A stretch of 56,692 bases of DNA, the filler included, from Diploschistes diacapsis (Eukaryota): the NCBI GenBank assembly GCA_023645945.1. It is 5 parts of 5 records of this genome, joined end to end, with 100 filler letters (N's around TTAATTAATTAA, not from the genome) between each part and the next. Parts side by side here need not be neighbours in the genome. Positions count along the whole stretch, not along the records: positions 11,385 to 22,644 come from JALAIB010000845.1; 4 more parts are not named here. The stretch is one strand, 5' to 3'. Shown piece by piece: positions 877 through 45,451 of this stretch; positions within the stretch are counted from its first letter, which is position 1, and every line of letters starts with the position of its first letter. The notes under the pieces were generated by a model, which did no database searches, had not been told where the DNA came from, and saw only the letters and a list, made by a program, of their open reading frames with translations. A program made the translations under genes and the position numbers.

Positions 877-2893
877 ATGCCACACCCATTTCCAAGCACA
901 TCATCAACCATACAGAACGAGATGTCACTTGAAGCAGCATTAAGCCAAGATGTCCAGCAAACCCTTCGTCTCGAACTCAAAGCATGGGAAAATGCCTTCG
1001 CTGCCGGCAATGGAGGGCGTAAAGCCGGGCGCGAGGACATCAAGAGCGCGCCCGAGATAGGTCTGGCAGCGTTCTCTCCCCTTGTTTAAAGGACATTGCT
1101 TATGTACCGACTATGCAGCCGCCAAATATAAAGCCTACGACAAGCTCCGCTCAAAGTCGCTTTCCCAAAACCCCTTCGAACCACAGCAGACATCTTTATT
1201 TACTCCGCCAACGAAGAAGCGCAAAGTTATAAATGCCGCTAAGTCGCAATCGAGAAATCAAGCTTTGCATGCTGTAAAGCAAGATTCACAGAAGAAAGCT
1301 CTTTCGAACCACCCTTCAACGCTTGACCCCTACGATTTCCCTTCCATCCACCAAACTCCCTCCTCTGTCCGTACCGGCAACGTTATAGGACCAACGCCCC
1401 AGAAGAATGGGCAGGTCCTTGGGCTCTTCGACCTTCTCTCGCCGCCATCCACCAAAAAGAATAGAATCGACGACACCCCTTCAAAGAATCTTGCACTCCA
1501 AGCGACTGCAAACGGTGCCACCGTGCTTCCCTCCCTACCAATTCATCTACCATCAGATCCGAGGCTGCCCTTCACCACCCCTTCTAAACCCCGTCCGCCC
1601 ACCTCTACCAGAATATCAACTGCAGCAGAGCTGTGCATGACCCCAATACTACAACGGCACACCCGCACCCCTCAATCGTCAGGAAAACGCAAATTCCTCG
1701 ACGCCTTCCTCACGCCTTCCACGCGGCGCGCGACCACCCTTGCATCCGCCCACAACGAGAGCAACGACGCAACGCCCAGCTCCAGGCGGAAACAACCATC
1801 AATCCTCACACAATACGTGATGGAAGCGACTTCACAGCAGCCCGCCACCGCACTCATCGACGCCGTGCCCACAGGCGACGAGACCCCTGCCTTCCTCCGC
1901 CGCTTCGCCGCCCCCCTTCCCTCCGCTAGCAGGAGGCCTACGCTCACCAAGTCCCACGCTGCCACCGGGCCGGCAATCACAGATGCACTACTAGGCACGG
2001 AGATACCCGCCGGCCTCGAGCATGAGGAGTTGGCGCACAGTCCCGTGCGCGTGCGCCTCCCGCGCCAGATGCCTTTGGGCAGGAGTCTAAGCGAAATGGT
2101 GAAGAATTTGCGGCGGGCGGAGGAGGAGAAGCTGGATGAGGAGATGGAGATTATGAGAGAGATGGAGATGGAAGAGCAAGGGGTGGAAGATGGGTCGAGG
2201 GGTGTTGGGGGGGAGAGGAAGGGTCCGAGGTGGGAGGTTGGAGATAGCCAGGTTGTGATGGGAGCTAGTATTGGAGGTGGAGGCGACGCTACAGGTGTGG
2301 TTGACGGTGAAAGGGAAATGAGGTTGGGTGCGGACGGGGAGTGGAACAGCAGCGACGAAGAGGGCGCAGAAGGGAAGGGTGATGTAGCGGAGGATAGCAG
2401 ACCAAGAAAAGTGTGGAAGAAAAATGGGCAGAAGAGAACGACGAGGCGGGTGAACATGAAGCCGCGGACGGCTAAGTGGGCGCCGGAGAAGGAGTGGGAT
2501 GCTGAAGAGCAAGATGAAGAGGGGGAGAAGAATTGGGATGGCGACGTGGTGGCCGAGACGCAGGCCGCTGATCCTACTTTCGGACATGATGATGCTGGTG
2601 CAGCGGACGATGTCGGTGGTGATCACAGCCGGGGCGCGGAGTTGAGATGGGACGAGGATGGGGACAGAGAGCAGTTAGAAAAGGAGCAGAGAAATGGTAG
2701 GGGAAGAGGGAGGCCGCCACAGGAGAAGAAGGCAGCAGAGAATCCGCAAGCTAGGGAGGAAATGGAGGGCCTGAAGGAGAAGAAGCCGCGTAAGATCAGT
2801 GCCAGTGCACATGCTAATTTCCGGGCGCTGAAGATCAGGAATAAGAATTCGCGGGCCAAGAGGGGTGGAGGGAGGTTCGGTCGGAGGAGGTGA
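877..2893 (+). CDS. SLD2: DNA replication regulator Sld2/Drc1 (2 exons; intron 1061-1118; start at 877 or 922)
   Basis: The spliced N-terminus LRLELKAWENAFAAGNGGRKAGREDIKSAPEIAAKYKAYDKLR is the Sld2/RecQ4 N-terminal domain. It also has IGPTPQKNGQVLGLFDLL, many S/T-P CDK sites, KKNGQKRTTRRVNMKP and a C-terminal HANFRALKIRNK. A GT-AG intron joins the two frames. Confidence 0.9.
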
Positions 2894-3698
2894 GGAGAAG
2901 AGATCTGGAGTGGTCAGATGTGTGCTTGGTGTATATAGAATGAGTCTGGGGCATTTGGCGGCCAGCTTCCTCGATAAAAGCGATTCACATGCATTGGTTT
3001 TGGAATGACTTATTCTGGTGTGCCAACCCGCATCCCCCCGCAATATAGCGTTCCAGTGTATATCGTGTGACTGCGATTCTAGCCTCAACCCATCAATTGT
3101 AGACAAGAAGCACTCCTAGCGCGACTTTCAGAATATCTTCTTCGTCTTTTTAAATAGACCTCTAGATTCTACATGTCAACCCGGCCATGAAACCTTTCTT
3201 TCAAATTAAATCTCTTGACAGCCTGATATACCGATCCGTCAGCTCCTACACAGGCCCAAGCTACTCCTGCCCCTCTTTGGCCATCTGGTTGTAACGCATC
3301 CAGAAATTCCAGTCTTTTTTCATTCATCTTCTCCAAGGCGCCATCCAAGCCCTCCATTACACTTTCAGAGTTCCTGTCCTTGTCTCCTGCAGGTTTGCCT
3401 CAGTCTGAGCCTGTACTTGCCACTTCGCTCTGTTCAATTACCCGCAAAACAAAGAATCTTAGCGGTGTGATACCTTGCACTTTTGTGTTACCTCGGCCCT
3501 TCTTCTCGGTCTTTGCTCTTACGTACATCAATGAATTGAGGCGAAAGTACTTGAATGCTGCTCAACTGCAAGTGCTCAGCCTCTGTAGCCGACGTGGGCG
3601 GCCACGCCAGTTTTGTAGATCGAGTAGTCGAATTATGCTACCCAGGTCCTTTTGGGATTGTAGCTTAACAGGCTATCGTGTTGTCTCTTAGGATGCCT

Positions 3699-4908
3699 TT
3701 AGTCTGGTGGATATCGATCGTAGTGACGGTCTTTGCTGTGCTCTCCAGAAAGACCAGAACCACTGGTTGAAGAGCTGCGCCTTCTTTTCATTCCCACCTC
3801 CAGCCTTCCAGTTTGCAACATTCCTTCCCCTGTTGTATCCGACATTGAACTAATATGCCTCCCTTCGATCGCTCCTAAGCCCTTTTGTTGCCTGAGTTCT
3901 GGATACTGCACATGCCGATCCCAGCTTTCTAGATCCGTGTACGGACTTCTTAGCCAAGCTCGTAACTCGTGCAAGAACAGCTGCGCATTTTTGCGGCCCA
4001 GGAACTCGGTGAGCATCTCCTCAGCCTGGCCCTGCGAGCCTTTGATGTCGACCGTCTTGAGTATAGCTAGAATATACTCTAACAGGAACTCGGCGTTCGA
4101 GGCACGCCGGCCACGAAGCGTCTGCTCACTCCGTATCTGGGCCCTGGAAATTCCTACACCGTGAGCAGCTGTATGAGTGGCATCCGAGCGAGCCGAACGT
4201 GAGTCCCTCGAGATGGCTTCGTCGGAGTTTGGGCTGAAGAGGTCGAAGGCTTGAAGCTCGCGTCTAATCCATTTTCGTGCTCTGGAGATGAGCTCGGTGT
4301 CCGAGGTTAAGCGAGCGGGCGTAAGATCCTGAAAGCGTGAGATTCGATTGGAGCCTACATGTGCAGAGTAGAGTTGATGCTGATAAATATAGCGGCGACG
4401 TATTAGGGCTGACTCCGGTCCTACAGGAGATGCTCTCCAATGAGAACGGGGGCGCTGGAATCTAAGCCTATTTGGCTGCCAACTGGGTCGACATCGGAGG
4501 ACCCAAGATGCCGGCACAGGTCGGTACGGAGCCTCGTCTGACGTCAGGGACTCCGTAGAAGCGACGTTATAGCTCTTGGACGTTCCCCGAGAGTTGAAAT
4601 CGTACTCAACCCTGGAGACATCGGTTTTACCTGAATAACAAGATCAGCTGCTCCCGCCGCCAGTTCAGCGCAATGGACCGGGATCTGCAGGCCCACTCAC
4701 ACAATGGACAACTTGACTTTTCCTGAAGCCAGCTGACAATGCAGATGAAGTCGAAGCTCTGGTGAAGACAGGGTAGAACAACGGCCTTCTCGGTTACAGA
4801 TTCGAGGCAAATCACGCAAGGGTCCGAAGATCTGGATCCTGACTCTAAGAGCTTCGCTTCTTCGAGGGTACTCTGGACAGTTGTCTCTCTCAGATTGTTA
4901 CGTTCCAT
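3699..4908 (-). CDS. RING finger E3 ubiquitin ligase, TOPORS-like (exons 4908-4701, 4630-3699; ~379 aa)
   Basis: C3HC4-like RING CVICLE...[25 protein letters not shown] is completed across a GTGAGT..CAG intron (4631-4700). Downstream it has WIRRELQAF and [28 protein letters not shown], typical of fungal TOPORS-like proteins. Confidence 0.85.
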
Positions 4909-5420
4909 CGCCTATCGTCAGCTCAAACAAGGTTGAGACTACTTACGGTTCATGCATAAGCAGTTTCAGGGAATGGAGGACGCTGCAGGTTTCCATATCG
5001 CACCGAAACACGCGGGAAACATCGCCACTAGCACGTGGCTACGATGTTGGATACGTGGCTGTGCACTGTGGTTTGAAAAGGTTTTTTCATCTATTTGGTT
5101 CGAACTTCGATTCTGGAAAGATTCTGCTCAGCACTAGCTCAACCTATTCTTCACACACGTTTCGTTTTGAGAAAAGCAAATATGGAGTAAAGTAATTTTG
5201 GAACGATGAGAATAAGATTCACAGCAAAGGTTTTATCGTTCGCTCTGAATTAACAAGCAGATGAAAAAGACATCTAACGCTTGAGTCCCTCGCTATGCTG
5301 TGAAACTAATACAGAAGCACAAGCATAATATGCTGAACGACGAAGCAGATCCTTGCGTCCCATTATTTATGAGATTCAGCAACAGCCGAGTACCATCACA
5401 TCATCAACTATATTCAATAT

Positions 5421-5841
5421 TTAAGACTCGAAAAGCACTGCTCTCTTGTAGGGCCCCGTTAGGACAGTGCCATTGTCGGCGATGGCACCGTCGACGGAGC
5501 AATAAGCATTGCCTGCATGCGGGGAGGTCTGCTTGCATGGTGCAAATTGACAAACGCCACCACAATATCCCGCCAGATTATCGTTACAATTGCCAGCATA
5601 ACCACCGTTACCGGCTGCGTCGCAGTGGATGATGTAATTGGTGCTACCACTCTGACCAGCACAGTACGTGCCAGCCTTCTTGCAGGTAATGGTGCCGTTG
5701 TTCTGGCTATACCAACGTATGTTAGCTTTCTCCCTCGATGTCGAGGAGCGGTAGGCCGCGGTGGATCTGCACATACATAATATATTGACCGGAAACGCTG
5801 GCGACCGCGGCAGCCAGGACACCGATGAAAGTAGATTTCAT
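5421..5841 (-). CDS. Small secreted cysteine-rich protein (exons 5841-5777, 5706-5421; ~116 aa, 8 Cys)
   Basis: Signal-peptide-like MKSTFIGVLAAAVASVSG is followed by intron GTATGT..GCTAAC..ATAG (5707-5776), which splices in frame to QNNGTITCKKAGTYCAG...GNCNDNLAGYC...AYCSVDG. The ORF track misses the first exon. Confidence 0.85.
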
Positions 5842-11284: not shown

Positions 11285-11384
11285 NNNNNNNNNNNNNNNN
11301 NNNNNNNNNNNNNNNNNNNNNNNNNNNNTTAATTAATTAANNNNNNNNNNNNNNNNNNNNNNNNNNNNNNNNNNNNNNNNNNNN
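11285..11384. other. Artificial contig linker (Ns + TTAATTAATTAA six-frame stop)
   Basis: 100-nt spacer, identical in design to the other three. Confidence 0.99.
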
Positions 11385-11507
11385 CCCCTACACTGATCGA
11401 GAGTCCCACCCCCTTTCCTGGCGTTGGTGCCGCGCGGAGCCCCCTGGTGGGGCATTCGAATCGTGTGGGATAGTGCAGCTAATACGTCGACGTTGACGCA
11501 CGGACAG

Positions 11508-12664: not shown

Positions 12665-14143
12665 TCATGTATGAAGCGGATCAACGCCCTCGCTCATGGC
12701 AACGCTAACGTTGTGGTGATGGCCGCCGCCGCTGCCGCCCATGTTGGGCTGCTTGTAATCCATGGCCCTCATGCGATCCTGGACGGGGCCGAGAAGCCTC
12801 TTGAATCCCTCGCTGCCCAGCGTTGCCACCTTCACTTCGCTCGTAGCAATCACCGTCGCAGCGCGGGGCTTGTCGTCGAGCAGGGCGAGCTCGCCAAAGT
12901 AGTCTCCCTTGTGGTAGGTCTTTAGCACCTCGCTGCCAGTCACGTGCTTGTACACGGATGCCGTCCCGGACTCGAGGATGTAGAACGACTCGCCCTTGTC
13001 GCCCTCCCTGATGATCTGGTTGCCGGGCTCGAACCTCTGCGTTTCGAGGGCGTCGGCGATCTTGGCGCGCTCGTAGGGCGTGAGGGAGGAGAGGAGCGGC
13101 ACCTCCTCAAGGAAGGACTCGTACATGCGGCGCCTCTGGAAGGCAGAGTCCATGAGAATGCGGCGGAAGGTCACGCGGTCCAGGGCCCAGAGCAGTGAGT
13201 TTGGTTCGGTGCTGATGATTGTTGCGGCGCGAGGGGCATTGTACATCAGGGCGAGTTCGCCGAACGAGCCACCCGGGCCGACGGCAGCGACTCTGGCGCC
13301 CATGCCGTCCGCACCGGCTTGGATGGTACCGGAAGAGTGGATGTAGACCTCGAAGCTCCCCCTTTCCACCACGTAGAAATTGTCTCCTGCGTCACCCTGC
13401 GAGATGACCTTTATGCCCCTTGCTGGAATGGGCTTTTCGAAGAGAGCAGCAATGACCTGGTTCATCTGCTCCTCGTGGAGGTGAGAGAAGAGGAAGTTGT
13501 TCCTGACCGCTGCCCTGATGCGGGCTACCTGGTCCTCGGTCTTGGGGTGCGAGGGGGGTTTCCAGTCGTCCGAGTCGGAAGCAGTGGGATTCATAGACTC
13601 GGCCGAGACGGAGGTGCGACGGCCAAGAGCATAATTTTGAGGCAAGCCTTCGTCCACTGTACCGGGGAACGAGGACTGAGCTTGGGCGGCCGGGTCGAAA
13701 GATGAAGCACCAAACGGCGAGGCTCCGAACGAAGCTCCTGTGCCGAAGCTCGAGGTGTTGAAGTTTGTCGCAGCTGGAGAGGCAACTGCGTCCATCTCGT
13801 CCTCCTCGTTCACTTGTTGCATCGCTGGATTCTGACTGGCTCCTCCAAAGGGATTATTGCCCGGGAAGGAAGTCTGTGCCATCTTTGGGGGGATCTTAGA
13901 GGTCGGAGAGGTTGGAGGTGCAGGAGAATTTTTGAGAGAATGGCCCAGGAAGCGGGCTCTGTCTTCCTCGAGACGTTTGTTGAAATGGTTTGCGCAGAAT
14001 TGAAGGACGTCCTTTGGCCTGTGTTCGCGGAGTGCGTGGGACAGAGTGTCGGCCTCGTGCTGGTAGTGAGGATGGGATGGTTTGTTTGTCTTTGGGATGT
14101 TGTGGACGGAGCGGATTTGGGGAGTTTTGCCGGCGGGGGACAT
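12665..14143 (-). CDS. pkaR: cAMP-dependent protein kinase regulatory subunit (exact 5' end uncertain)
   Basis: It has a D/D-like segment RPKDVLQFCANHFNKRLE, the inhibitor site RRTSVSAE, and two cNMP-binding cassettes (SFGELALMYNAPRAAT and YFGELALLDDKPRAAT). Confidence 0.95.
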   Translation of the reverse strand: MSPAGKTPQIRSVHNIPKTNKPSHPHYQHEADTLSHALREHRPKDVLQFCANHFNKRLEEDRARFLGHSLKNSPAPPTSPTSKIPPKMAQTSFPGNNPFGGASQNPAMQQVNEEDEMDAVASPAATNFNTSSFGTGASFGASPFGASSFDPAAQAQSSFPGTVDEGLPQNYALGRRTSVSAESMNPTASDSDDWKPPSHPKTEDQVARIRAAVRNNFLFSHLHEEQMNQVIAALFEKPIPARGIKVISQGDAGDNFYVVERGSFEVYIHSSGTIQAGADGMGARVAAVGPGGSFGELALMYNAPRAATIISTEPNSLLWALDRVTFRRILMDSAFQRRRMYESFLEEVPLLSSLTPYERAKIADALETQRFEPGNQIIREGDKGESFYILESGTASVYKHVTGSEVLKTYHKGDYFGELALLDDKPRAATVIATSEVKVATLGSEGFKRLLGPVQDRMRAMDYKQPNMGGSGGGHHHNVSVAMSEGVDPLHT

Positions 14144-14285
14144 GATTATGAATTATTCACATAAGCTTTCTGGCTTTCTTTTGCCTGCCTGCAATGCAAT
14201 GCAAGGGATCGGCACTAAAGAGCAAACCTTAAATCTTTGGCTTTTTGAAAGAGAGGGGGAATAAACATCAAGGAGGGCAATCGAC

Positions 14286-15213: not shown

Positions 15214-18009
15214 CTACAAGACCATTTGCCATGTCACCCTCCTACTCTGCATAGCCTGCAATACACTTAGCGGCAGCAACGATTTATCCACCATGGCGAG
15301 GCCTCCAAACTTCTCGAACAACTCGTTCGCATGATACTGTATCGTCCACCTCATCTCAGCACTCATTTCTCCAAGCTCCATTTCTTCTCCCATGTCGGGC
15401 GAAGCACGGAGACGCATGAGTGCCTGCTCGACCGTGTTCGAGACGTTGGGCTCGCGCTTACTCGGCGGCGCCATGAAAGAGGTGTAAATCTCTTCCAGCA
15501 AGGCGCTTGAACTCTCACGCCACTTGGTGTACTCTGCGAAGCTGGGGAACTTCTGAGCATCCTCCCACGATAGCTCTGTTCCAGAGGATACGACGTAATT
15601 ATCCTTCTTGAAGCAATCGCGATACGTTTTACTGCGCTGATGCTCGGACCTAGTGTCAAAGAGCTTCTTTGCCTCATCATAGCCTAACTTTTCTTCCAGA
15701 TGGAACTTTTTCATGTACTCGTCTGGATCTATGCTTATGCTCTCGCGGACAAGGAAAAGCGAAGTAAAAGGGTTCTGCAGGTTCAGTCCGCCAAAACTTT
15801 CCGATAGGTACAGAAACGCATCGGGTACGTCAGTGACTCCGAAACGACGAGATATGAGCCCCTTCAAGTGATTTGTGACTGTTGCAGCAACGCCTTCGTT
15901 GTGGGATTTGAAGAGAAACTCTTGCATTTCCTTGTGAGTCGCTAGGACTTGGTCTAAGTGGTACCGCCCGAAACAGAGCGCTGGACTGTCTCCACATCAG
16001 TTATCTGCGCAAGTCTTTTTTTGGTCCGAAACCACTTACTCTCCGAAGGTATAACTAAAGAACCTCCCGATGCAGCTATTCCAGGTCTTGATCCACTCCA
16101 GAACGCTCTTGGTGCCCGCAAGTTGCTTCTGGAGCTGTTCCACATGCTGCTGGACATGTTCCTTGTTGATGATCCAACGACCAGAGTCTGGGTCAAGAAT
16201 GAGGAAGTTCATCACGACCTGGCCTTCGGGTAGTGCTTTCACGATGCTAGCATCCTTCTTGATCCCTTTCTCTACTAAATAAACCGAGCCTGTCTTGTGC
16301 TCGTTGAATTCCAGCCCCATGATTTCGGCGAACTCTTTCATAGTTCGCCAAGCTTTTGCACAGTTCTGTGGCTCCCCAACCAGCCACAGGTCATCGTGAA
16401 ATCGGTAGAGGAGCATGGAAGCCTCCTGATTGACAGCAACGTCCATCATGAAGAGAACGAGCTCTCCAAAGAGTTTTTCGAATATGTGGGCCATTGGCAG
16501 CCCACGCTTTCTCGTTCTTACTGGCTTATCGTTGAGCATATCAAGAGGGGGCTCCAGGACTTTTTTGAGAAAACGTATCCATTCTTCCTGGAAGCCCATG
16601 AAGCGGAGAACAGCAAATACGGTACTGTGTGCAAGTCCCGTCGCAAACCACTGAAAATCGCTTTGGACCACAGCCACTGCACCGTCGAGTGATCTTCGCA
16701 GTACCACTTCGGTTGCTAGGGTTCGCAGAAGCAGCTGCTTTATCTCCTTCGGAGATTTCCTCTTCGAGTCCGTCTCGTATCCGGTCTCATCGTCATCGTC
16801 GTACCCACCGGCCTCGAAGATTCTTGAGGGCAGAGGTGCCATGAAGAAGTGTTCCCAATAGGTTGTCAGACGCTCTGAATCCACAGAGCGATTCGGATAA
16901 TCTCCTTTGAGCGGCATGCCATAATATTTTCGTTTCTGGACTTCTTCATATGGCATGTTTGTTGCATGTTTCCATATTCCGGTGTATCCCTCTATGTTTC
17001 GGAGCGTGCCCTTGAGCTGGACGGCCCACATTATTCCTATCCACTGTGTGAAGATCGCCTCCAGCACGTCTTCATCCATCATGACCCGCCACTTCCCATT
17101 GAGGCTCTGGCGCCTGCATCTGGAGTTAACCTCGTGACCAACACTTTGGTAGAATACGACTTACGGTACCACGGGCATGCCTGCCGTCCCAATATTCCAT
17201 GACCAGTTTTGGAGATCTCTGTACCTCATATTCAGGACATCCCTGATCTCCGTCAATACAGCTTCGTCGCGCAAGAACTCCTGCAAGCTGGCCTTCTTCT
17301 CGTCATTTAACAATTGGTTCTTGAGAAGGGCTTTGATAGACCACTTTAGGGACCGATCGTCCAGAAGGCGTTTCTCGGAGAGCATGCGCTCGCCCGTCTT
17401 ACTGACATCGTCACGAAGTTTCTCCAGAACTTTCTTGCCACTATCGCCTACAAAAAGAGAATCGAGGTAGTGATCGATGCCAGATTCATCCGTCTCCAGT
17501 GGTTCGAAAACAACACGCTCGAACTTGTCCCGGAGCTGCTGTAGTCTTTCCTTCTGCCTCGTCTGGACCATCTCGAAAGGGTCATCCAAGGAAGTACTCT
17601 CTAGCATTGCGGCTTCCGTTTCTTCAGTATTCGGCGAGTCAATCCATTCGGTCAGAAGGCGGGAATAAAGATCAGCGAGACCCAACTTCTTTGATTCCAT
17701 ATCAAGTCTCGACTTCAGAACTGCTTCGAACTGCGAGAGGGCCGCGTCACCAATGGATGGGTCGTACTCCGCCTGGTCAATCCAGCCGCGCATGTTACGC
17801 AACTCATCGGGGGACCAGACGTCAAGTTTCGTGACTCTGTCGTGCAAACGGGAGACTCGTTTCCGGACATCCTTGGCCTCCCCCTGGGCCTCGTCCAAGG
17901 CTTCACTCTTGCTTTTCTCGTATGCATGACGCTGCTTCTCGAGCTCTTTGATCTTTGTGACGGTGATGGACTGCAGAGTGCGAGAGAGAATCGATGCAGA
18001 GGAAGCCAT
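15214..18009 (-). CDS. rvt: Cellular (non-mobile) reverse transcriptase-related protein, rvt class (exons 18009-17165, 17113-16040, 15985-15214; 896 aa)
   Basis: Two canonical GTAAGT..CAG introns (17114-17164, 15986-16039) join three ORF-track pieces into one 2691-nt frame. It has a coiled-coil-like N-terminus, PRQSLNGKWRVMMDED, an acidic loop YDDDDETGYETD, QSDFQWFATGL, RGLPMAHIFEKLFGELVLFMMD, catalytic LLYRFHDDLWL and MGLEFNEHKTGS. No gag, protease, RNase H, integrase or endonuclease is visible. Confidence 0.9.
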
Positions 18010-18217
18010 TGTGAAGCTCTAAAAAGTCAAATTTACCAGGTACTAGAGACTTTGGTATGAAGGATGAACTCTCACTGCATTCATTGTACCTAGCCGTTTC
18101 CTCTAGCGGCATAGAGCACGCGGTAAAGCCGCAGCGGGAACGAGGCCAAGGTAAGGGCGCCTGCTAAGGTCCTTTGCTAACCACTTCGAGTTGATCCATT
18201 GGCCTCCTGCAGTCTTA

Positions 18218-22644: not shown

Positions 22645-22744
22645 NNNNNNNNNNNNNNNNNNNNNNNNNNNNNNNNNNNNNNNNNNNNTTAATTAATTAA
22701 NNNNNNNNNNNNNNNNNNNNNNNNNNNNNNNNNNNNNNNNNNNN
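22645..22744. other. Artificial contig linker
   Basis: Ns + TTAATTAATTAA. Confidence 0.99.
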
Positions 22745-24725: not shown

Positions 24726-26084
24726 TCAGTTGGGCGCCCTTTCAGTGACACTACTAAAACCCCTGTCTACCCTGATACCTTTATATTCCTCTTGCTTAAT
24801 GGCTCCCGACTTAACGACAGAGTCGTTGTGGTTGTGCAGTTCATACCATTGATATTTTGCCTCCGAGTTGCTTCCCTTGCTGTTAGACCTCTCGCCCGTG
24901 GACCGTTCCCTGGTGCTTCTAGAGCCGGACGAACCACGGCTCCGCAGCGAAAGGAAAGAGCGAAATCTTGCGACGAACGACTCGGTGGACGATCCTTTGT
25001 TGAAGAGAGGCCGCAGTGTGGGCAAGCACGCGGCCGTGCACGAAACGCTTGCTTCTACCGGATACCACTCGACCAACACGTAGATTGCGGCTGTTTTGGA
25101 ATCAGTCATGCATCACATGGACGGTAGGTAATGTTCCTGCATACATGCATTGGTTGCGATCTCGCCACCGCCCGATCCTTTCGGTCCTTTGAGGAAGAGG
25201 TATTGATAGTAGAGGCGCATTGCTGACCCAATGCACGCTCTGGATAAAGACAAAAATTAGCGGGCGCTTAGCTTAATTGGGAAGAGGAGACAATAGTACA
25301 TGAATCCAAGGAAAAAGACGCCAAGCAGCAGCAACTTCTTTCGTGTCGGCATATGGAGTTTCCAGATAGGAAATATGGGAAGACATAAAATAGCAATATC
25401 AAGCAGAAGATCGAGGACAGAAGTTGTCGCCAGAAAGACCGGATAGGCTATAATGAAGTTGGAATCATCCTGGTCCAGTCTCCAACTGTCGGATATTGGC
25501 CACTGTCCGAAAATCTGACCCTGTATATCAAATTAGGGTCTGTGATGATTGAACCAAGGGTGATTTACACTTACAACAAGCGCACCAGCTGTCCAAAGCA
25601 CCATGAGCACAATGAAAACGTCGATAACTATGCGGAAGGACCGGACCGTAAAGATACGACGGTAAAAGAACAGGATAGAGAGCTTGATAAGTCCCAGTGC
25701 CGCAAACGAAATCAGTGGACCGACGTAGAGGATCTGTCGTGGTTCATAAGGTTGGCAATTCGACCAGCTCGAGGCACTTACTTTTTCGAAGCCTACAGTC
25801 TGGTCCGGGGTCATTTTGGACAGCGGCGGTCCAAGGCAGCCCGTGACTGCTCCATAAATGAGTGCTATACCGATACAAAGACTGAAAATCTATTGAACTC
25901 GTTAGGAAGTACAGAAATGGAGTGCGCATACCCTTACGCCGCCTATAAGTATTAACCAGTCATCGATGCCGATGTAATTGGATTTTGTCCTCCTAGCCAC
26001 GAATCTTAGAATCACAGGGGTCGTGGAGAGGATGCGCAGCACACAGCCAAGCGCAATGAGAACATTCCGCTCTGAATCATACAT
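24726..26084 (-). CDS. PTH11-like rhodopsin-domain integral membrane protein (6 exons, appears intact)
   Basis: Segments VILRFVARR..IGIDDWLIL, LGLIKLSILFFYRRIF, LLLDIAILCLPIFPIWKLHMPTRKK and VEASVSCTAACLPTLRPLF are joined in frame by five GT-AG introns. Confidence 0.85.
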
Positions 26085-26832
26085 GTTGTCTCCAAGCCCT
26101 GCAAAACAAGGCACCAAGGCAAAAATTCTGGAAGGATGGCCTATGTGAAGCTTTCATATTCGAGAAAGGGAAGACACAGACATACGAGGGCTTTGGAAGC
26201 GAAAGACGGTCTCTGGAACAGTAGTCGGAGCAGGCCAAACGAGTGAAGAAAAGTAGAATACCCATTGCGCGAGGAAAGCCAAGGGCGTGGTGTGCCTGAC
26301 CTGACACAAGAGGCACAACGTTGCAGCTCAATCCTCACACAACCTCGCCTGTTTGACCACTTCGTCTCGTGAACAACGGCGTGGGTGCCTGCCTGCCTGC
26401 TCGCAAGGAAACATTCGTGCAGGAAGACCCAGAGATTCACCTCGATGCCGGGCAGCGAATCGGCATCGAAGAGAAGAATGAGGCATCACGCATGTCGATG
26501 ACTTGATATCTAGGAATTTTTCTCTTTGGTTACAGCAGGCTGTATTGGACTTTTTCGAGTTACACGTAAGTGTCGCGATAAGATTTCGATCTTGATGAGC
26601 TCACCCTCTTCCAGGCCAGAGCAACCTGGGTATCTTATAGCACACAGCGAATGGTAACACTGGTCTATAGAATCAGCACCCATAAGCTTCCCTTCCTTAA
26701 CTGGTCTCTGCTGCCTCTTATAGATCTCAATGGTGTATATATACCTTCCACCACCTACTATCTTTGCAAAGGAGTAAACTGTCATCCGCCAGATACACTT
26801 ATGCTCTAGGCTGACTCGTTTACTCGATTAAC

Positions 26833-27243
26833 ATGAGCGACACCGAGATCAGAGTTCTTGCCCTTCATGGCCACGGCTCTAATGCCAAGGCGAGCTTTGC
26901 TAAATCTCAGTTATAAGGCCCAACTAATTTTTTGGCAGATCTATCAAGCTCAGACCGGTCGGTGCTATTATACTGTTTGATATTCATCTCTAACTGTATC
27001 AGCGGCCCCAAGGCATGAGTTGGGTGATCGTTTTGAATGGGTATTCGTAGAGGGATCAATCCCCAGTCCCATGGCGCCAGGTTTGTTGCAACTCTGTTTT
27101 CAGTTCTTCTAGCTAACTTTCCGTAGAGCTTAGAGTTCCACCATGAGCCGGAAGACTGCTTCTCCTTCTTCGATCCTGCAGTGCCCCAGACCAGGGCAAA
27201 AGCCGTTCAGGACCTGAAGAACTATGACAAGGACGAAGGACCA
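26833..27243 (+). pseudogene. 5' fragment of FSH1-family serine hydrolase/esterase (LovG-like)
   Basis: It reads MSDTEIRVLALHGHGSNAK|IYQAQT|..RHELGDRFEWVFVEG..|..SFFDP..AVQDLKNYDKDEGP, then homology stops before the catalytic GFSQG motif. There is also an internal frameshift/stop at ~27140. Confidence 0.75.
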
Positions 27244-27539
27244 GTAGTTAGGTCCCCCGCCAATTCTCACCAAAATCATCGACCCGAATATCTTCCCCAG
27301 AAACGTGCCAAATCGAAAATTTAAAACATGATAAAGAACTTTAAGAGCGGTCATATGTAAGAGATTTTTTTCCGAATCGTTTAAAATTTTCCTTGAGTTC
27401 CTAATATGGGGCTAAACATTTGCAAAAATTGCGCAATGACTGACGGCACGGCATAGGCCGCAGATCTGCGAACCGTTCCTACACCCTCTCAATGCCATCC
27501 TGCAGCAAGCACGAACAGCCCACCACTTCACCTGACAAC

Positions 27540-28833
27540 TCAGTCTACTGCATACTCCACTTCTTGGCCACCTCGCTTCTTCTGCATCGCTGACGAGATA
27601 GAAATGGATCTAGAGGCTTCATCGGGAAGAAGAAAGCCTAGAAGTAAGGACACTGTTCAAGACACTGGTGATCATCGCCAGCGAAACGACAGATCCTAGC
27701 ATCCGAAATTGCACAATAGTCCCTGTCGCGACAGCTTGTTTAAATCAGTGACGTTCAAGTGACTTGGTTTGTGAAAACATACCCAATTCCTGGGCATCCA
27801 CAGCATATGGGGTTGCGACAACCAAAACGCTAAATGAGAGACCTATGCCGAGAGAAACCACTGCTTCTAGTATTAATTGGGCCGCGGATTGCAATCCAAA
27901 GCCCGGAGAGACAGTCAAGATTGTGAAGCCAATGAGCTGAATCACGGAGCCAATAAACAGGATGGTAATTGCATAGGTTCTGGTTGTGCTCGCGAGGACG
28001 TTCACAACAAAAGCGGTCAAGGAATTGCCAAGGGAAAATGGCAGCAGACGCAAGCCAGCACTTAAGGCTGATGAGTTCGTCCTCAATCTGGAATCTTTGT
28101 GGCAGGTCCAAAGACATGATTGATATAGAGCATCCAATCAAGATGGCCAATCTGCCATTGTTAGCTTGCGGTCGTGTCTGCATGAATTTGGTCGCAATCA
28201 TTGTACTAACAGTAGCATGACCATCCAGACTCTATTGTGTACAAAAGACCAAGGGAAGACAGGCTCTCTAGCGCCTCCTTTTCTCGTCAAGTATCTTTCG
28301 TACATAAGAAATGCTGACAGAGCCAGACTAAATAAGACTAAGAGGCATATTACGGTCGGCGAAGACCACGTTAAGATGGTGTTCACACTGGGGGGGGGGT
28401 ATCGACACGAAAAACGAAGCGGCAAGGAGGAGAACGAATCCGACAAAATCGATTTTGTTAAACAGAAAGCCAGCTACCTCCCAATAAGACAATGATCCTT
28501 CCAAAACGGGCGGCTGGCCATATGGCAAAGTAGACGGCAGTAGGAGAAGAAGAGCTCCAAGGGATGACGCGGCGAGCGGCACGCTATGAAGGTCTTCAGA
28601 CTTCTGTGCTTCATTGGGAGCACGGATACTTACTTCAGAAGGAAAAGCCAGCGCCAGGTTGACAAAGTGGATATTATTCCACCGAGCGCCAGCAGTCGCC
28701 AATGCTATGGAGAAGAATATTATGCTGCCGTATAGAGAATATTTTGACTTCGGAACCGATTCAACCATGATAATCATGGCAAGTTAAAAACTCCCCGAGC
28801 CTCCTAAGCCTTGCAAAGCTCGACACACGATCC
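27540..28833 (-). pseudogene. MFS drug-efflux (DHA2-like) transporter, 5'-truncated and disrupted
   Basis: Fragments include IVCRALQGLGGSGSF*LAMII, KIDFVGFVLLLAAS, REPVFPW, LPQRFQI, AGLRLLPF and ATGTIVQFRMLGS. It has an in-frame TAA, frameshifts (e.g. G-run ~28390) and internal deletions, and no N-terminal exons. Confidence 0.8.
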
Positions 28834-28854
28834 TGAACACCCTCGATTAGCAAG

Positions 28855-31800
28855 CTAATTCTACTGCTTTGCAAGCGCTTGCAACCATTTCTTCCGAAGA
28901 GTCAGATCCGAGAACAGCTGATGTTCTTGCTTTTGAATCTTCTGGGGAGATCCCATTGCTTCAGATACATAAGCTCTCACTATCTTCCATAGACGATACG
29001 AGAACTCAAGTCGTGCCTAGGAGCTTGCATTGTCATAAGGTCGATTGGAAGCCAGATTTGAGCGTACTTGACGCCGCCCAGGTATCGCAACTCTGCCAGG
29101 TCGAGCAAGAACCGAACCAAGATCTCACTGACGGTTTAGCCGCATTAGACAATATTATCGGTCGTCTGATGCGAAAAACAGTGTTTGGGCTCGCTGGCAT
29201 CGAGCTACAGAATCTCTCAGAGCCCATGCGCCTCTATTCGCGGTGGTTACGCCAAGAACATCTGACATCTGCAAGACAAGACCAGTCCTCGACCTATGAG
29301 GAAAGTGTGACTATTGACTCCCAAGAAAAGCAATTGCAAGCACTTATGAAGGCAGACGAAACTCAGAGAAATCGATTGAAAGCGACTCTCCAAGTGGGTC
29401 AGAATCTGCCTCAGATCATCAAGAGCGAACTCGATCTGCATTCCGTCCTTCAGGCGAATAATCTGACATTACCCTCAAGCCGAGGACCAGTGTCTGATAA
29501 ATACAGCTTTCAAGCGGCGAGACAATACTTGCGCCAAATGGTGCACAAAGCTCCCGACATGAAGATTATTGAGGTGGGGAGTAGCATGGGAACCATGACA
29601 GAAGCATTACTGCCAGCGTTCATGGCGACCCCTGAGAATGGGTCAGACATTGATCACGCAGGCTATGATCAGATCTGTTACACTAATGTAGACCAAGCCT
29701 TGCTAGCAGCCGCAGAGTCGAGGCTGAAAACACTTCCAAATATCAATTTTGAAATACTTGACATTGGTCGCAGTCCCAAAGAGCAAGGCTTTGAGCCCGA
29801 GACGTACGATATACTTTTTGCCTCCCACCTCCTCGAGCGAGAGCCTCGCACTCATCAAATCCTGAAGCACGTGCTTTCGCTGATGAAGCCCGGTGGAAAG
29901 CTTCTGCTATCAGAAAACACGAATAATCTATGTCGGGTCAACTTCGTGAACGGATTACTACCAGAGTGGTGGAAACCAGGCCCTACGCCAACGGAGATTT
30001 CAGCTCCGTGCTTGTCACTCCAGGACTGGAACTCAAGGCTGGCAGACACCGGCTTCTCCGGCACCGAGGTTGTTTTTAGAGATCACGATGACGAACGATG
30101 CCACGAAACATCGATCATTGTTTCATCAAAGCTAAGATCGGTGCCGGATGTCTCGCCAAACTCAACAGCCAAGCTTCTGATCGAATCTAAAGATGCCGAA
30201 GTGCAAGATATCAGCACCAGGCTGGGAACTTGCGGTATTGATATCAGTGGAATCGTGTACCTTGAAGACCTTGTCCAGGGCTCTAGCCTGCAAGACACCA
30301 TTTTCGTCTCGCTGCTCGAGCTGAACCAGCCGTTCATTAGGGATTGTACTCCTTCCGGCTTTTCGCAATTGCAACACCTGTTCAAAAACGCCAAAGGCAT
30401 CGTCTGGCTCACTCAATGCGGGGACAAAGTCGATCCCGCTTTCGCCATCATTGACGGCCTGGCCAAATCCGCAAGGCTCGAAGATCCCAAACTGACACTG
30501 GTCACCGTCGCACTGGAACTGCAAGAAGGGCTCGGTATCTCCGACAGGCAGCTGAGCTACATCTCCAAGATCTTGAAAGCGACGAGCTTCGAGATTAACA
30601 GCAACCTCAACGACATGACGTACAAGGAAATTAACGGTTCGATGTGCATAGGAAGGCTTCGGTACGACCAAGCCTTGGACCCTATCGCCCAGAACTGGCA
30701 GGGACCAGCGCAGGAAGAGATCACGAGTTTTGACCGGAGCACACCGCTGAAGTTAGAGGTGGAGAGTCTAACTCATAATGAGCCCGCTGTCCTGCAGCAA
30801 GAGTCCACAGAATCTCGTCTAACACTGCCAAATCTGTTGGACATCGATGTCCATGCCTATGATTTCTCCTCCAAGAGTCCGTCAAGCTTGTCCAAGGAAT
30901 CGGTTCTTGGATTTGCCGGTGTAGTAAAGAGAGTGGGCGCCACATGCGAGGGTTTCGAACCTGGAGAACGAGTCTGTGGCATTGGCAACTTGGTCTTCTC
31001 TAGTCTTATCCAGGTTGACTACCGCTGCTGCGCCAAGATTCCAGACTCGCTAACTTTCGCGGATGCTGCCCTGATTCCACAGGCATTTCTTACCGCATAC
31101 TTTGTCTTCCAGCTGGCGAGTATTGATGAGAACGATGCTTTGCTCGTGCAACGCGCGGCAAGCGTCCTCGGCCAGGCAGTGATTCAAATCGCGATACAAC
31201 GCGGGCTCAAGTCGATACTCGGGACCGTTGGTTCGGCGGAAGAGAGAGCGCTCTTAGAAATGGAGTGTCATATTCCTTCGACTGATCTTTACTCGGACAT
31301 CTTGTTCCTGACCAGTAACAAGTGGGCAGCTCGGAAAGATTTCGAGAATCTATCGACATCCAATATCAATGTAATTGTAAATGCTTTGCCAAGCGTCAGT
31401 TTGGAGTCTTCGTTTGAGTGCGTCGATTTTTTTGGACGAGTGGTGGACATTACAGGACAGCAATCCCGTGGGGACTCTGTTCATCTGAGGAAGGCGCAGA
31501 GCAAAGGCGTTTCTTTCTCTTCCTTTGACCTATCACAATGGATTCAACACAGACCAAAGTACCTTCAAAAAGGTTTGAAACACGTGATGGAGCTATTTTC
31601 GTCCCAGAGGGTCAGCCCACTTCGAGGAATTAGGAAAGCATATTTATCAGACATTCATCAAATTTTGTCACGTCCTGAAAGGGATCAGGAGCTAGATCGA
31701 ATTGTCATTGAGATGAGGATAGAGCAGCCTCTCAAGGTGAGTTCAGACAAAGGTATCTGTAACTTCGCTGGCGTTGCTCATAGATCATTCGAGCCCCTAA

Positions 31801-33017
31801 GCATGGTCATCGGCTCAACGCAGAGACCACCTATGTGATAGCAGGTGGTTTGGGAGGCATTGGGCGCTCTATTGCACAGTGGATGGTAGGCGAGGGCGCA
31901 CAAAACCTGGTACTCTTATCTCGGTCTGGATTGGAAACGGCGGGAGCTCCGGCTTTTTTTGAGAGCTTGACAAGTCGAGGTGCCATCGTGAAGACTCCTC
32001 CTTGCGATATAAGCAGTCTCGAGTCCGTGAGAAGTGTGTTAGCGGATCTTGAAGGTCTTCTGCCTCCCATTAGAGGTTTCATTCACGCGGCAGTTGCTTT
32101 CCGGGTGAGTGCAAACGTTTCAAATCGATGAATTTATGTTACTGAACTTTTCATAGGACGATACCTTCTATCAGATGTCCCACTATGACTGGAAGATGGT
32201 AACGAAGGCAAAGGTACAGGGAGCCTGGAATCTACACCGAACACTGCCGCGCGACTTGGACTTCTTCGTCATGCTCTTCTCCATCGTCAGCATCGGGGGC
32301 AACTTCGGGCAGTCCAACTATGGCGCAGGCAACGCGTATCTCGACGCGATGGTTGCGTATCGGAACTCTCGAGGCCAGAAAGCAGCAGCCATCAACTTCG
32401 GGCCCTTCCGGAGCACAGGATATATTGCGAAGAACAAGTACGCCCTGGACGCGACGCTCAGGCTGGGTTACTTTGGAGAAGTAAGCGAGCCACAACTATT
32501 CGCTCTTCTAGGCCACTACTGCGATCCCACGAGTACGACCCTAAACCCAGCGCTGAACCAGGCTATCGTTGGTTTCACGAAACCACAGGCTACTATCCTC
32601 AAGCGTTACCGGGAAGGGGGAACAGCCTTGAGCGTAGCAGTCATGCGGCACTTCCTACATTCTCACGGCTCGGGCCCTGCGGAGGATCAGGCGGTTGCTG
32701 CTCCTTCGACGTCCCCTAAGGGCACCAGTAGTGCTAGACATGACTTCATCGCTGCCGAAACAAGCACCGACGCAGCTGCAGTCGTAGCGGCGGCTTTCGC
32801 TGCGAAACTTGCGGTTAACGTAGCCACTCAAGGGCCTATAGACCATCAGTTGCCAATTCATTCTTATGGCATCGACTCCATAACGTCCTCGACACTTCGT
32901 GGTTGGATTGCGGCCGAGTTTGCCGCTGAAGTGTCCGTTTTTGAGATCACGGGCGGCGGTTCGGTTGCCGATCTTGCAAGGACGATTGCTTTGAACAGTC
33001 CGCTTAGGGGGCGTTAG
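28855..33017 (+). CDS. Highly reducing polyketide synthase, 3' part only (end of DH, pseudo-cMT, degenerate ER, KR, ACP); introns 31737-31783, 32105-32156
   Basis: It shows post-DH VDWKPDL, cMT-like MKIIEVGSSMGTMT / QGFEPETYDILFASH / LMKPGGKLLL, ER-like FEPGERV and LLVQRAASVLGQAVIQIA, KR YVIAGGLGGIGRSIAQWM..GQSNYGAGN and ACP YGIDS. There is no KS or AT, and an in-frame TAG lies at 28848. Confidence 0.9.
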
Positions 33018-33999: not shown

Positions 34000-34099
34000 N
34001 NNNNNNNNNNNNNNNNNNNNNNNNNNNNNNNNNNNNNNNNNNNTTAATTAATTAANNNNNNNNNNNNNNNNNNNNNNNNNNNNNNNNNNNNNNNNNNNN
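34000..34099. other. Artificial contig linker
   Basis: Ns + TTAATTAATTAA. Confidence 0.99.
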
Positions 34100-45351: not shown

Positions 45352-45451
45352 NNNNNNNNNNNNNNNNNNNNNNNNNNNNNNNNNNNNNNNNNNNNTTAAT
45401 TAATTAANNNNNNNNNNNNNNNNNNNNNNNNNNNNNNNNNNNNNNNNNNNN
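45352..45451. other. Artificial contig linker
   Basis: Ns + TTAATTAATTAA. Confidence 0.99.

Follow-up and report, generated by a model that had tools for sequence, protein, structure and literature searches.

The minus-strand locus at positions 15214 to 18009 of the window, the whole 56.7-kb stretch of DNA analysed here, is likely to be a complete and probably functional fungal rvt gene, to which the protein-primed polymerase mechanism described for that family may carry over. Judging from the sequence, we have little doubt about the identity of the encoded protein as a fungal member of the rvt family, which is UG37 of the UG/Abi classification of reverse transcriptases (RTs). The gene belongs to an already described family, common in filamentous ascomycete fungi, of which it is an unexceptional member, and it stands by itself among typical host genes, outside any retroelement.

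Reading on the minus strand from an ATG at 18009 to a TAG at 15214, removal of two introns leaves 2691 nt that encode 896 amino acids and a stop codon with no internal stop. Three minus-strand open reading frame (ORF) pieces (17161 to 18018, 16036 to 17160, and 15214 to 15996) are joined in one frame, and both termini of the protein match the family consensus to the end residues. Exon 1 (17165 to 18009) encodes residues 1 to 281 plus 2 nt and corresponds to the helical N-terminal domain; exon 2 (16040 to 17113) encodes residues 282 to 640, with RT motifs 1 to 7 and a large insertion between motifs 2 and 3; and exon 3 (15214 to 15985) encodes residues 641 to 896 and the stop, covering the end of the thumb and the C-terminal domain. 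Intron 1 (17114 to 17164) is 51 nt long and runs from GTAAGT to GCAG, intron 2 (15986 to 16039) is 54 nt long and runs from GTAAGT to ACAG, and either would introduce an in-frame TAA if retained. An alternative acceptor for intron 1, 6 nt upstream at 17120, gives a 45-nt intron that is also in frame and a protein of 898 amino acids. It was rejected as the main form, and kept only as a possible alternative, because the two extra residues are absent from all 12 aligned homologues. The 51-nt intron together with intron 2 fits all 12 without a gap, and on that alignment the 51-nt acceptor is preferred for the predicted splicing. The stop-free protein of 896 residues that the initial annotation obtained by splicing two canonical introns was recomputed at the same length and, as a splicing prediction, agrees with the homologues; its description of the gene as "hidden" in ORF fragments comes down to two short introns. 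Exon 3 aligns with fungal homologues as far as the final residue. Six indels were listed from relatives' contigs aligned to the gene: the sole exonic one is 3 nt (16813), a 1-nt insertion carried by related contig X3 lies within intron 2 (16015), and the remaining four fall outside the coding sequence (CDS).

The class assignment was made with profile searches. Exon 2 matched the RT_UG37 profile with 111.7 bits (E 6.8e-33), and the second-best profile, RT_UG17, reached 23 bits (E 7.4e-06). The AbiP2 profile scored far under UG37 (19.4 bits, E 9.6e-05), and Pfam RVT_1 gave 13.6 bits (E 0.054) against a cut-off of 29.6, touching only the FHDD stretch. Exon 1 matched the N-terminal part of RT_UG37, profile positions 4 to 231, with 30.8 bits (E 1.9e-08); exon 3 scanned alone gave no RT_UG37 match at E ≤ 0.01, and a sequence search of exon 2 against the PDB gave 0 matches at E ≤ 10. 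Five full-length homologues, 44 to 57% identical across the whole protein, matched RT_UG37 at E values of 2.7e-48 to 2e-61 from profile position 3 to positions 656 to 683 of 778. UG37 corresponds to rvt in passages of a published account (PMC9226505), and we assign the gene to the rvt class because of the RT_UG37 matches taken together with that equation. The initial annotation had called this a stand-alone RT-related gene of the rvt class, and with RT_UG37 the best profile, far above UG17 and RVT_1, that call stands. Passages of another source describe rvt as the sole class of RT to have been reported from bacteria as well as eukaryotes and a large loop 2a insertion between motifs 2 and 3 as one of its features (PMC5718144).

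The protein aligns end to end with fungal proteins of about 890 to 940 amino acids. Searches at E ≤ 1e-3 returned 350 matches among proteins of 630 to 2000 amino acids, the named ones spanning several Pezizomycotina classes, and 710 representatives in 1.84 billion 50%-identity clusters. Metagenome relatives were collected from 75 loci, all at most 53% identical, 41 of them with at least 3 kb downstream. The intron positions of the gene are shared by none of the 75, 48 of the 58 full-length relatives are uninterrupted ORFs, and by this comparison both introns are specific to the gene's lineage. At L069, a locus from a distant relative, two copies stand in tandem, and the family therefore cannot be called "single copy" throughout. 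A contig search for bacterial relatives with fungal-specific patterns gave 58 pattern matches, none of which was confirmed, and is uninformative on bacterial rvt.

From its N terminus, the protein comprises a helical domain of some 280 residues, an RT core interrupted between motifs 2 and 3 by a large disordered insertion that is acidic in part, a thumb, and a conserved C-terminal domain. The predicted catalytic aspartates D434, D522, and D523 are all intact. The motif A aspartate D434 (16657 to 16659) lies in QSDFQWF (residues 432 to 438) and is at least 90% conserved among 133 sequences; in motif C, FHDD (F520 to D523, 16390 to 16401), both aspartates are invariant and the histidine at least 90% conserved in the same sequences. 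In exon 2 numbering these are D152, at least 90% conserved like H239, and the invariant D240 and D241. The insertion, or loop 2a, occupies roughly residues 327 to 402 (16753 to 16980, boundaries estimated) and contains an acidic stretch beginning GGYDDDDE (residues 384 to 397, 16768 to 16809), and the family consensus retains its GGYDDD. Some 143 residues separate the NGKWR motif from the motif A aspartate, including extra helices and the unstructured acidic stretch. An AlphaFold model of exon 2 had a pLDDT of 89.8, with no secondary structure predicted for exon 2 residues 90 to 120 and a pLDDT of 55 to 68 over residues 101 to 120. The N-terminal part of homologue P0012 is predicted to be all helical over residues 2 to 262, with helices of up to 40 residues; coiled-coil packing of the matching exon 1 region is putative. 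The features named in the initial annotation, FHDD, QSDFQWF, and an acidic insertion, are thus present, and its long helical N terminus is predicted through the P0012 model. It had presented FHDD "in place of YxDD" as special, a view that does not hold, as the H, D, and D are 90 to 100% conserved in 133 sequences. By sequence, FHDD, the motif A aspartate, and the acidic GGYDDD loop all belong to the family consensus and are no peculiarity of this protein.

Comparison with relatives supports purifying selection on the gene, as had been proposed earlier. Whole-gene dN/dS was 0.13 to 0.30 in seven pairs of metagenome relatives, and dN/dS in the RT core was 0.09 to 0.17 in six of those seven. The gene itself was compared with run X2, which is about 2% diverged from it, using 40 of 93 variants. 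Among the variants listed, residues 405 to 896, in the core, showed 9 nonsynonymous and 9 synonymous changes (ratio 0.27), residues 283 to 404 showed 16 and 3 (ratio 1.41), and residues 283 to 896 gave an overall ratio of 0.56. The signal in residues 283 to 404 comes from 19 listed changes (p = 0.038), and this loop-bearing segment holds 16 of the 25 listed amino acid changes. Most of the listed amino acid differences from X2 fall in loop 2a itself, which also holds a 3-nt indel. Between close relatives the loop joining motifs 2 and 3 appears to evolve rapidly, against a constrained core.

Work by Gladyshev and Arkhipova, published in PNAS in 2011, reportedly described rvt genes as encoding a multimer with Mn2+-dependent NTP/dNTP polymerisation and protein priming, induced by translation inhibition. 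Passages of a later source describe rvt genes as single-copy genes whose N-terminal coiled coil forms multimers in vitro, as not being parts of retrotransposons, and as showing protein priming that depends on the C-terminal and RT domains (PMC9226505). For the N. crassa RVT, passages of PMC3520738 report that the protein is non-essential, strongly up-regulated on protein synthesis inhibition, and possessed of terminal transferase activity in vitro. By extension from the Neurospora and bacterial RVT proteins, the protein encoded here would multimerise through its N-terminal coiled coil, its RT active site would polymerise nucleotides in a terminal-transferase-like, protein-primed fashion with no known template, and the gene would be switched on under translation inhibition. 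We put the chance that this scheme, a protein-primed, largely untemplated polymerisation by a stress-induced multimer, applies to the encoded protein at about even, by analogy.

The fold of the predicted protein bears on the untemplated part of that scheme. Among known structures, the RT core matched R2 (Z 15.8), DRT2 (Z 15.4), and LINE-1 (Z 14.1) with 271 to 279 residues aligned, and diversity-generating retroelement (DGR) RT with Z 13.6; together these four aligned over 239 to 279 residues, and their Z values are partly inflated by aligned length in the case of the larger templated RTs. Group II RTs fell between Z 15.8 and 10.9, DRT9 scored Z 12.3, and TERT scored Z 11.5. AbiK and Abi-P2 gave Z 10.9, with 194 to 197 of 357 residues aligned in the palm and fingers only. 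For the whole protein, represented by a homologue model, the best matches were to R2 (Z 24.2 and 23.7, the former with an rmsd of 4.9 over 481 aligned residues), and LINE-1 ORF2p matched with Z 18.8 to 20.6. The R2 and LINE-1 ORF2p superpositions cover model residues 118 to 890, approximately, at a sequence identity of 10 to 13%, and in the full model the exon 3 part falls on the thumb and linker of both. In these models templated RTs stand nearer to the predicted core fold than Abi polymerases do, so the likeness to Abi-type polymerases suggested at first is not favoured by the fold (Z 10.9 for AbiK and Abi-P2 versus 14.1 to 15.8 for R2, DRT2, and LINE-1). As the best fold matches are templated retrotransposon RTs, the "untemplated" part of the mechanism is weakened.

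An alternative that we consider unlikely is that the rvt enzyme is RNA templated and, like DRT2, DRT9, DRT10, or telomerase, copies a short RNA template that is separately encoded or borne in an untranslated region. Protein-primed repetitive or homopolymeric DNA would then be a stress or antiviral signal, and the untemplated activity seen in vitro would be a side reaction. The proximity of the core fold to R2, DRT2, LINE-1, and DGR, with AbiK and Abi-P2 lower, argues for it, as does RT_UG17 being the best PADLOC profile after UG37 on exon 2 and on three of the five homologues (P0012, P0046, and P0001). UG17 is DRT10, described in passages of a 2025 preprint as an RT with links to TERT that synthesises repeats from an ncRNA template with protein priming (PMC12632851). 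TERT also clusters nearby in language-model feature space (score 0.90), which we take as a lead only. However, the gene's contig (11385 to 22644) had no Rfam match at E ≤ 1, and the window flanks had no blastn match in the loci of the 75 relatives. Flank similarity among relatives was found only between loci whose CDSs are at least 74% identical, with flanks less conserved than the CDS in most such pairs and nearly equal in the closest ones, so that flank conservation tracks CDS relatedness only. A conserved 3' flank in seven distant-clade loci was without covariation (term +0.99; 2 of 43 pairs compensatory), and the fold scores that favour templating are themselves subject to the length effect noted above.

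It is quite improbable, in our estimate, that fungal RVT does in eukaryotes what the defence RTs DRT9 and DRT10 do in bacteria, as an enzyme triggered by stress or virus, protein primed and copying a short RNA template, with the fast-changing acidic loop 2a as a surface under conflict. That idea draws on the resemblance of the core to templated RTs over Abi polymerases, on UG17/DRT10 as next-best profile, and on the concentration of listed changes in residues 283 to 404. If it were true, a repetitive or homopolymeric nucleic acid would be an immune or stress signal.

The neighbor of the rvt gene is pkaR, encoding the regulatory subunit of protein kinase A (12665 to 14152, minus strand). It lies on the same strand 1061 nt downstream, and the RIIa and two cNMP_binding Pfam domains found in it bear out the adjacency given in the initial annotation. 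When pkaR and six other window ORFs were searched against the 75 metagenome loci, no tblastn match was found at E ≤ 1e-8; these relatives, at most 53% identical, thus lack this gene order. The gene had also been said to stay intact while many accessory genes of the window are broken. This contrast falls away, because the window is made up of five contigs, each about 11.25 kb long, with artificial N44-TTAATTAATTAA-N44 spacers between them, and genes at the joints are cut by assembly. Such spacers mark the left (11285 to 11384) and right (22645 to 22744) ends of the gene's contig. Other fragmented window ORFs are consistent with splitting by introns, as in the rvt gene itself. TGASTCA sites of the Gcn4/CPC-1 type numbered 2 in the whole window against 7.75 expected, with none near the gene.

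The searches found no retroelement features, in agreement with the earlier observation that the gene lacks retroelement genes, LTRs, and a poly(A) tail. No LTR, TIR, or TSD-like repeats were found around the gene, no run of A longer than 6 occurs in the 1061 nt that follow the stop, and the window holds no second copy. Retroelement Pfam families were found in 0 of the 24 largest window ORFs and in 0 of 100 flanking ORFs scanned from the loci of 33 relatives, and endonuclease, RNase H, gag, and zinc-knuckle families were found neither in the three exons nor in the five full-length homologues. It is thus very improbable, and already largely refuted, that the gene is a relic of a non-LTR (LINE- or R2-like) retrotransposon, or a piece of one that was domesticated. 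The whole-protein structure matches to R2 and LINE-1 ORF2p would favour such an origin, but at 10 to 13% identity they come no closer in sequence than other RT classes do, RVT_1 stays under its cut-off, and UG37 matches far better. Neither poly(A), TSD, nor repeat was found around the gene, dN/dS is 0.13 to 0.30, flank and CDS similarity go together in related species, and the family counts only 710 representatives at 50% clustering. It is likewise barely credible that the gene is unexpressed or decaying, its frame open by recent chance: the ratio above 1 in residues 283 to 404 among the listed X2 variants could be read that way, but the 896-codon frame is open only with two canonical introns removed and ends exactly with its homologues, the catalytic residues are intact, the listed core ratio is 0.27, and the single listed exonic indel is a multiple of 3.

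A complete rvt gene is the reading that we prefer. It contributes to the family a fungal member with clear limits, taken from an assembly associated with a lichen, and with it come the added observations of lineage-specific introns, a fast loop between motifs 2 and 3 against a constrained core, and a predicted core fold nearer to templated RTs than to Abi polymerases. None of these three observations gives direct access to the product or role of rvt genes, and the finding is mainly a correct annotation.

Set beside known systems, the protein shares with TERT a fold match of the core only, and Pfam searches for Telomerase_RBD or TERT gave no match at E ≤ 1 in the window exons or at E ≤ 0.1 in the homologues. 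R2 and LINE-1 ORF2p superpose best overall, over a stretch that takes in the N-terminal extension, the RT, and the thumb (Z 24.2 to 18.8), but the rvt protein has no endonuclease domain, no retroelement context, and no multicopy signature in the window, and the sequence similarity is at background. With AbiK and Abi-P2 the likeness lies in the untemplated polymerisation in vitro and protein priming of RVT proteins, as given in passages of PMC9226505 and PMC3520738; the fold match is weaker, the AbiP2 profile reaches 19.4 bits, and other domains surround the core. Among the ncRNA-templated UG RTs (DRT10/UG17, DRT2, and DRT9), DRT2 (Z 15.4) and DRT9 (Z 12.3) have the RT core fold in common with the protein, UG17 ranks second among the profiles on exon 2, and parts of PMC9226505 and PMC12632851 describe protein priming in this group as in rvt. 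Unlike them, the rvt gene is eukaryotic, has introns, scores far lower with UG17 than with UG37, and shows no adjacent ncRNA or SLATT-like partner gene nearby. From described rvt genes it differs at its C-terminal end, where roughly the last 150 to 250 residues, and the whole of exon 3 when scanned alone, lie outside the bacterial UG37 profile; it agrees with them in the RT_UG37 match over the helical N-terminal domain and RT core, the large insertion between motifs 2 and 3, the stand-alone context, the purifying selection, and the length of about 900 amino acids.

The assignment of this gene (minus strand, 18009 to 15214) to the rvt class of stand-alone reverse transcriptases (RTs), proposed in the initial annotation, was borne out by profile searches. 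The protein is almost invisible to Pfam alone, with RVT_1 giving 13.6 bits (E = 0.054) around the FHDD motif against a cutoff of 29.6. The PADLOC profile RT_UG37 matched exon 2 with 111.7 bits (E = 6.8e-33) and exon 1 with 30.8 bits (E = 1.9e-08; profile positions 4 to 231), and every other RT profile scored at most 23 bits on exon 2. Five full-length fungal homologs matched RT_UG37 with E values of 2.7e-48 to 2e-61, from position 3 to positions 656 to 683 of 778. UG37 corresponds to the rvt elements according to PMC9226505, and PMC5718144 describes as an rvt hallmark a large loop, termed 2a, that separates RT motif 2 from motif 3. The protein has this rvt layout, comprising an N-terminal domain, a loop between motifs 2 and 3, and the catalytic residues D434 and D522-D523. 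The N-terminal domain is about 280 amino acids long, and the helical character claimed for it is supported by the predicted model of a homolog (P0012; pLDDT, 88.6; pTM, 0.89), in which the counterpart is all helices over residues 2 to 262. Roughly 143 residues separate the NGKWR motif from the motif A aspartate and contain additional helices as well as an acidic segment that lacks structure; in the exon 2 model (pLDDT, 89.8), residues 90 to 120 lack secondary structure, and pLDDT is 55 to 68 over residues 101 to 120.

The FHDD motif, the acidic insertion, and the catalytic motifs are thus present as first described. They are not peculiarities of this gene but the family norm, since both FHDD aspartates are invariant in 133 aligned members, the histidine and the motif A aspartate are at least 90% conserved, and GGYDDD is part of the family consensus. 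The rvt family has been known since 2011, and public-database homologs already carry the label "reverse transcriptase domain-containing protein." The finding is a correct annotation of a further member of an already known family.

The coding region falls into three open pieces (17161 to 18018, 16036 to 17160, and 15214 to 15996), and at both breaks the sequence reads as a GTAAGT donor, an in-frame TAA, a short pyrimidine- or branch-like stretch, and an AG. Joining 18009 to 17165, 17113 to 16040, and 15985 to 15214 gives 2,691 nucleotides (nt), or 896 codons plus TAG, the same length as had been predicted for the stop-free protein. Removal of the 51-nt intron 1 and 54-nt intron 2 gave a gap-free alignment to all 12 named homologs, and the first and last residues coincide with the ends of the family consensus. 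An alternative intron 1 acceptor at 17120, 6 nt upstream, likewise preserves the frame, for a protein of 898 amino acids; it is less likely, as its two extra residues are absent from all 12 homologs. Contigs of three other public runs were placed on the gene, and six indels were listed. Four lie outside the coding sequence (CDS), a 1-nt insertion at 16015 lies inside intron 2, and the sole exonic indel is a 3-nt change behind 16813, in the acidic loop. This placement lends indirect support to the predicted exon-intron map. One contig of the run carrying a relative about 2% diverged (X2) lacks 43 nt at 18119 to 18163, upstream of the gene in its promoter region, so that close relatives differ in length there.

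Among metagenome relatives, 48 of the 58 full-length genes are uninterrupted single open reading frames (ORFs), and neither intron position was found in any of 75 metagenome loci; three lineages have an intron 9 to 28 codons downstream of the intron 1 position. Several database proteins start at or just ahead of the exon 2 start, including P0121 (378 amino acids, 71% identical) and a group of 587 to 641 amino acids, and these starts suggest that closer relatives may share a break near intron 1.

Purifying selection, as had been postulated, was evident in Nei-Gojobori comparisons of seven pairs of intronless relatives, with whole-gene dN/dS of 0.13 to 0.30 and the lowest values in the RT core (0.09 to 0.17 in six of seven pairs). 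The relative in X2 differs from the window by about 2% across the whole stretch, and among the 40 variants listed, of 93 in all, 37 fall in the CDS part 15214 to 17113. In these, residues 405 to 896 carry 9 nonsynonymous and 9 synonymous changes (ratio, 0.27), so the core and C-terminal part are constrained, whereas residues 283 to 404 carry 16 and 3 (ratio, 1.41; Fisher P = 0.038, with small numbers and 40 of 93 variants listed). Of the 25 amino acid changes among the variants listed, 16 fall in 16753 to 17113 (residues 283 to 402), the stretch with the motif 2-3 loop, together with the 3-nt insertion. That stretch is changing fast in this lineage, on small numbers and 40 of 93 variants; in other lineages the loop shows dN/dS of 0.14 to 0.36.

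A retroelement origin found no support, in agreement with the reported lack of retroelement genes, LTRs, and poly(A). There are no LTR-, TIR-, or TSD-type direct or inverted repeats around the gene, the longest A run in the 1,061 nt after the stop is 6, and the 56.7-kb window holds no second rvt copy. The 24 largest window ORFs gave no retroelement families; their matches were confined to ordinary host families, among them Sld2, pkaR, PKS, MFS, 3-beta-HSD, aldehyde dehydrogenase, Mre11, and calpain. Likewise, of 237 flanking ORFs, the 100 longest (from 33 of the 75 metagenome loci) contained no retroelement families and, apart from the two neighbors in L061 and L009 described below, matched ordinary metabolic or trafficking genes that vary by lineage. 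Flanks of relatives' loci are similar solely in pairs with a CDS identity of 74% or more, and in most of these pairs they are less conserved than the CDS, with the closest pairs nearly equal; this is the pattern of orthologs at stable positions. The family is also small for an RT, with 710 representatives at E ≤ 1e-3 in a set of 1.84 billion clusters built at 50% identity. A separate count among longer proteins gave 350 matches, and those with names come from several Pezizomycotina classes. A caveat is one 6-kb metagenome contig (L069) with two tandem rvt-relative copies (4 to 2164 and 2617 to 5569), which share about 29% identity with the window protein. Identities of the relatives in the 75 loci (L001 to L075) to the window protein fall into bands of about 43 to 53% and 29 to 36%, with a few at 38 to 39%, a split that suggests two or more fungal rvt clades. 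A CHAT-domain (caspase-like) protein adjoins the relative in L061 (2708 to 5263), and a DUF6589 ORF adjoins that in L009 (3900 to 4499).

The argument that the gene stays intact while its neighbors are broken does not hold. The window is five concatenated contigs of about 11.25 kb each, joined by artificial six-frame-stop spacers (N44-TTAATTAATTAA-N44) at 11285 to 11384, 22645 to 22744, 34000 to 34099, and 45352 to 45451, so genes cut there are assembly artifacts and adjacency across spacers is meaningless. The gene lies on the contig at 11385 to 22644, and the adjacency to pkaR was confirmed there by RIIa and two cNMP-binding domains, 1,061 nt downstream on the same strand; a search of the 75 loci of relatives, all distant (at most 53% identity), did not recover this adjacency. 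On the third contig, ORF pieces at 25389 to 33017 with methyltransferase, HRPKS NAD-binding, KR, and PP-binding domains resemble the latter portion of a highly reducing polyketide synthase extending towards the spacer at 34000, and the following contig carries genes for an MFS transporter and a 3-beta-HSD-like protein.

The gene is conserved, under selection, and stand-alone, and its RT active site is intact. By analogy with the literature on other rvt proteins, RVT would form a multimer through an N-terminal coiled coil, the multimer would add nucleotides by protein priming in the manner of a terminal transferase, and RVT would be induced upon translation block; we give this combination an even chance for the present protein. 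In the main rival reading, which is improbable, the enzyme would in reality copy an RNA template, as in DRT2, DRT9, and DRT10, the last being RNA templated according to PMC12632851. No partner RNA was found in the gene's contig (Rfam), in the window flanks compared with those of relatives, or in the relatives' own flanks. In one clade (L049 to L060), the first ∼220 nt after the stop are 72 to 91% conserved where the CDS is 84 to 95% identical, with no consistent ORF and no covariation by RNAalifold; this is probably a 3' UTR.

Predicted models show that the protein has a genuine RT fold. With a full homolog model, the best match was R2 (Z = 24.2; rmsd, 4.9; 481 aligned), followed by LINE-1 ORF2p (Z = 20.6), group II intron RT (Z = 18.4), and then DGR, DRT9, DRT2, and Prp8. 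The exon 2 model, searched against 48,161 representative chains, matched R2 (Z = 15.8), DRT2 (15.4), LINE-1 (14.1), DGR (13.6), group II intron RT (12.8), DRT9 (12.3), retron RT (12.0), TERT (11.5), and AbiK/Abi-P2 (10.9), with identities of 7 to 16% throughout. These R2 and LINE-1 matches do not make the protein a member of the LINE family, a placement opposed by its sequence profiles, its domain content, and its context. In ESM Atlas feature space, as a lead only, the exon 2 protein (16042 to 17112) lies nearest to Ascomycota hypothetical proteins (0.93 and 0.91), a mostly bacterial cluster in which Chloroflexota are commonest (0.91), and fungal clusters annotated as TERT (0.90). In its predicted build, the RT core stands nearer to the templated RTs than to the untemplated Abi polymerases.
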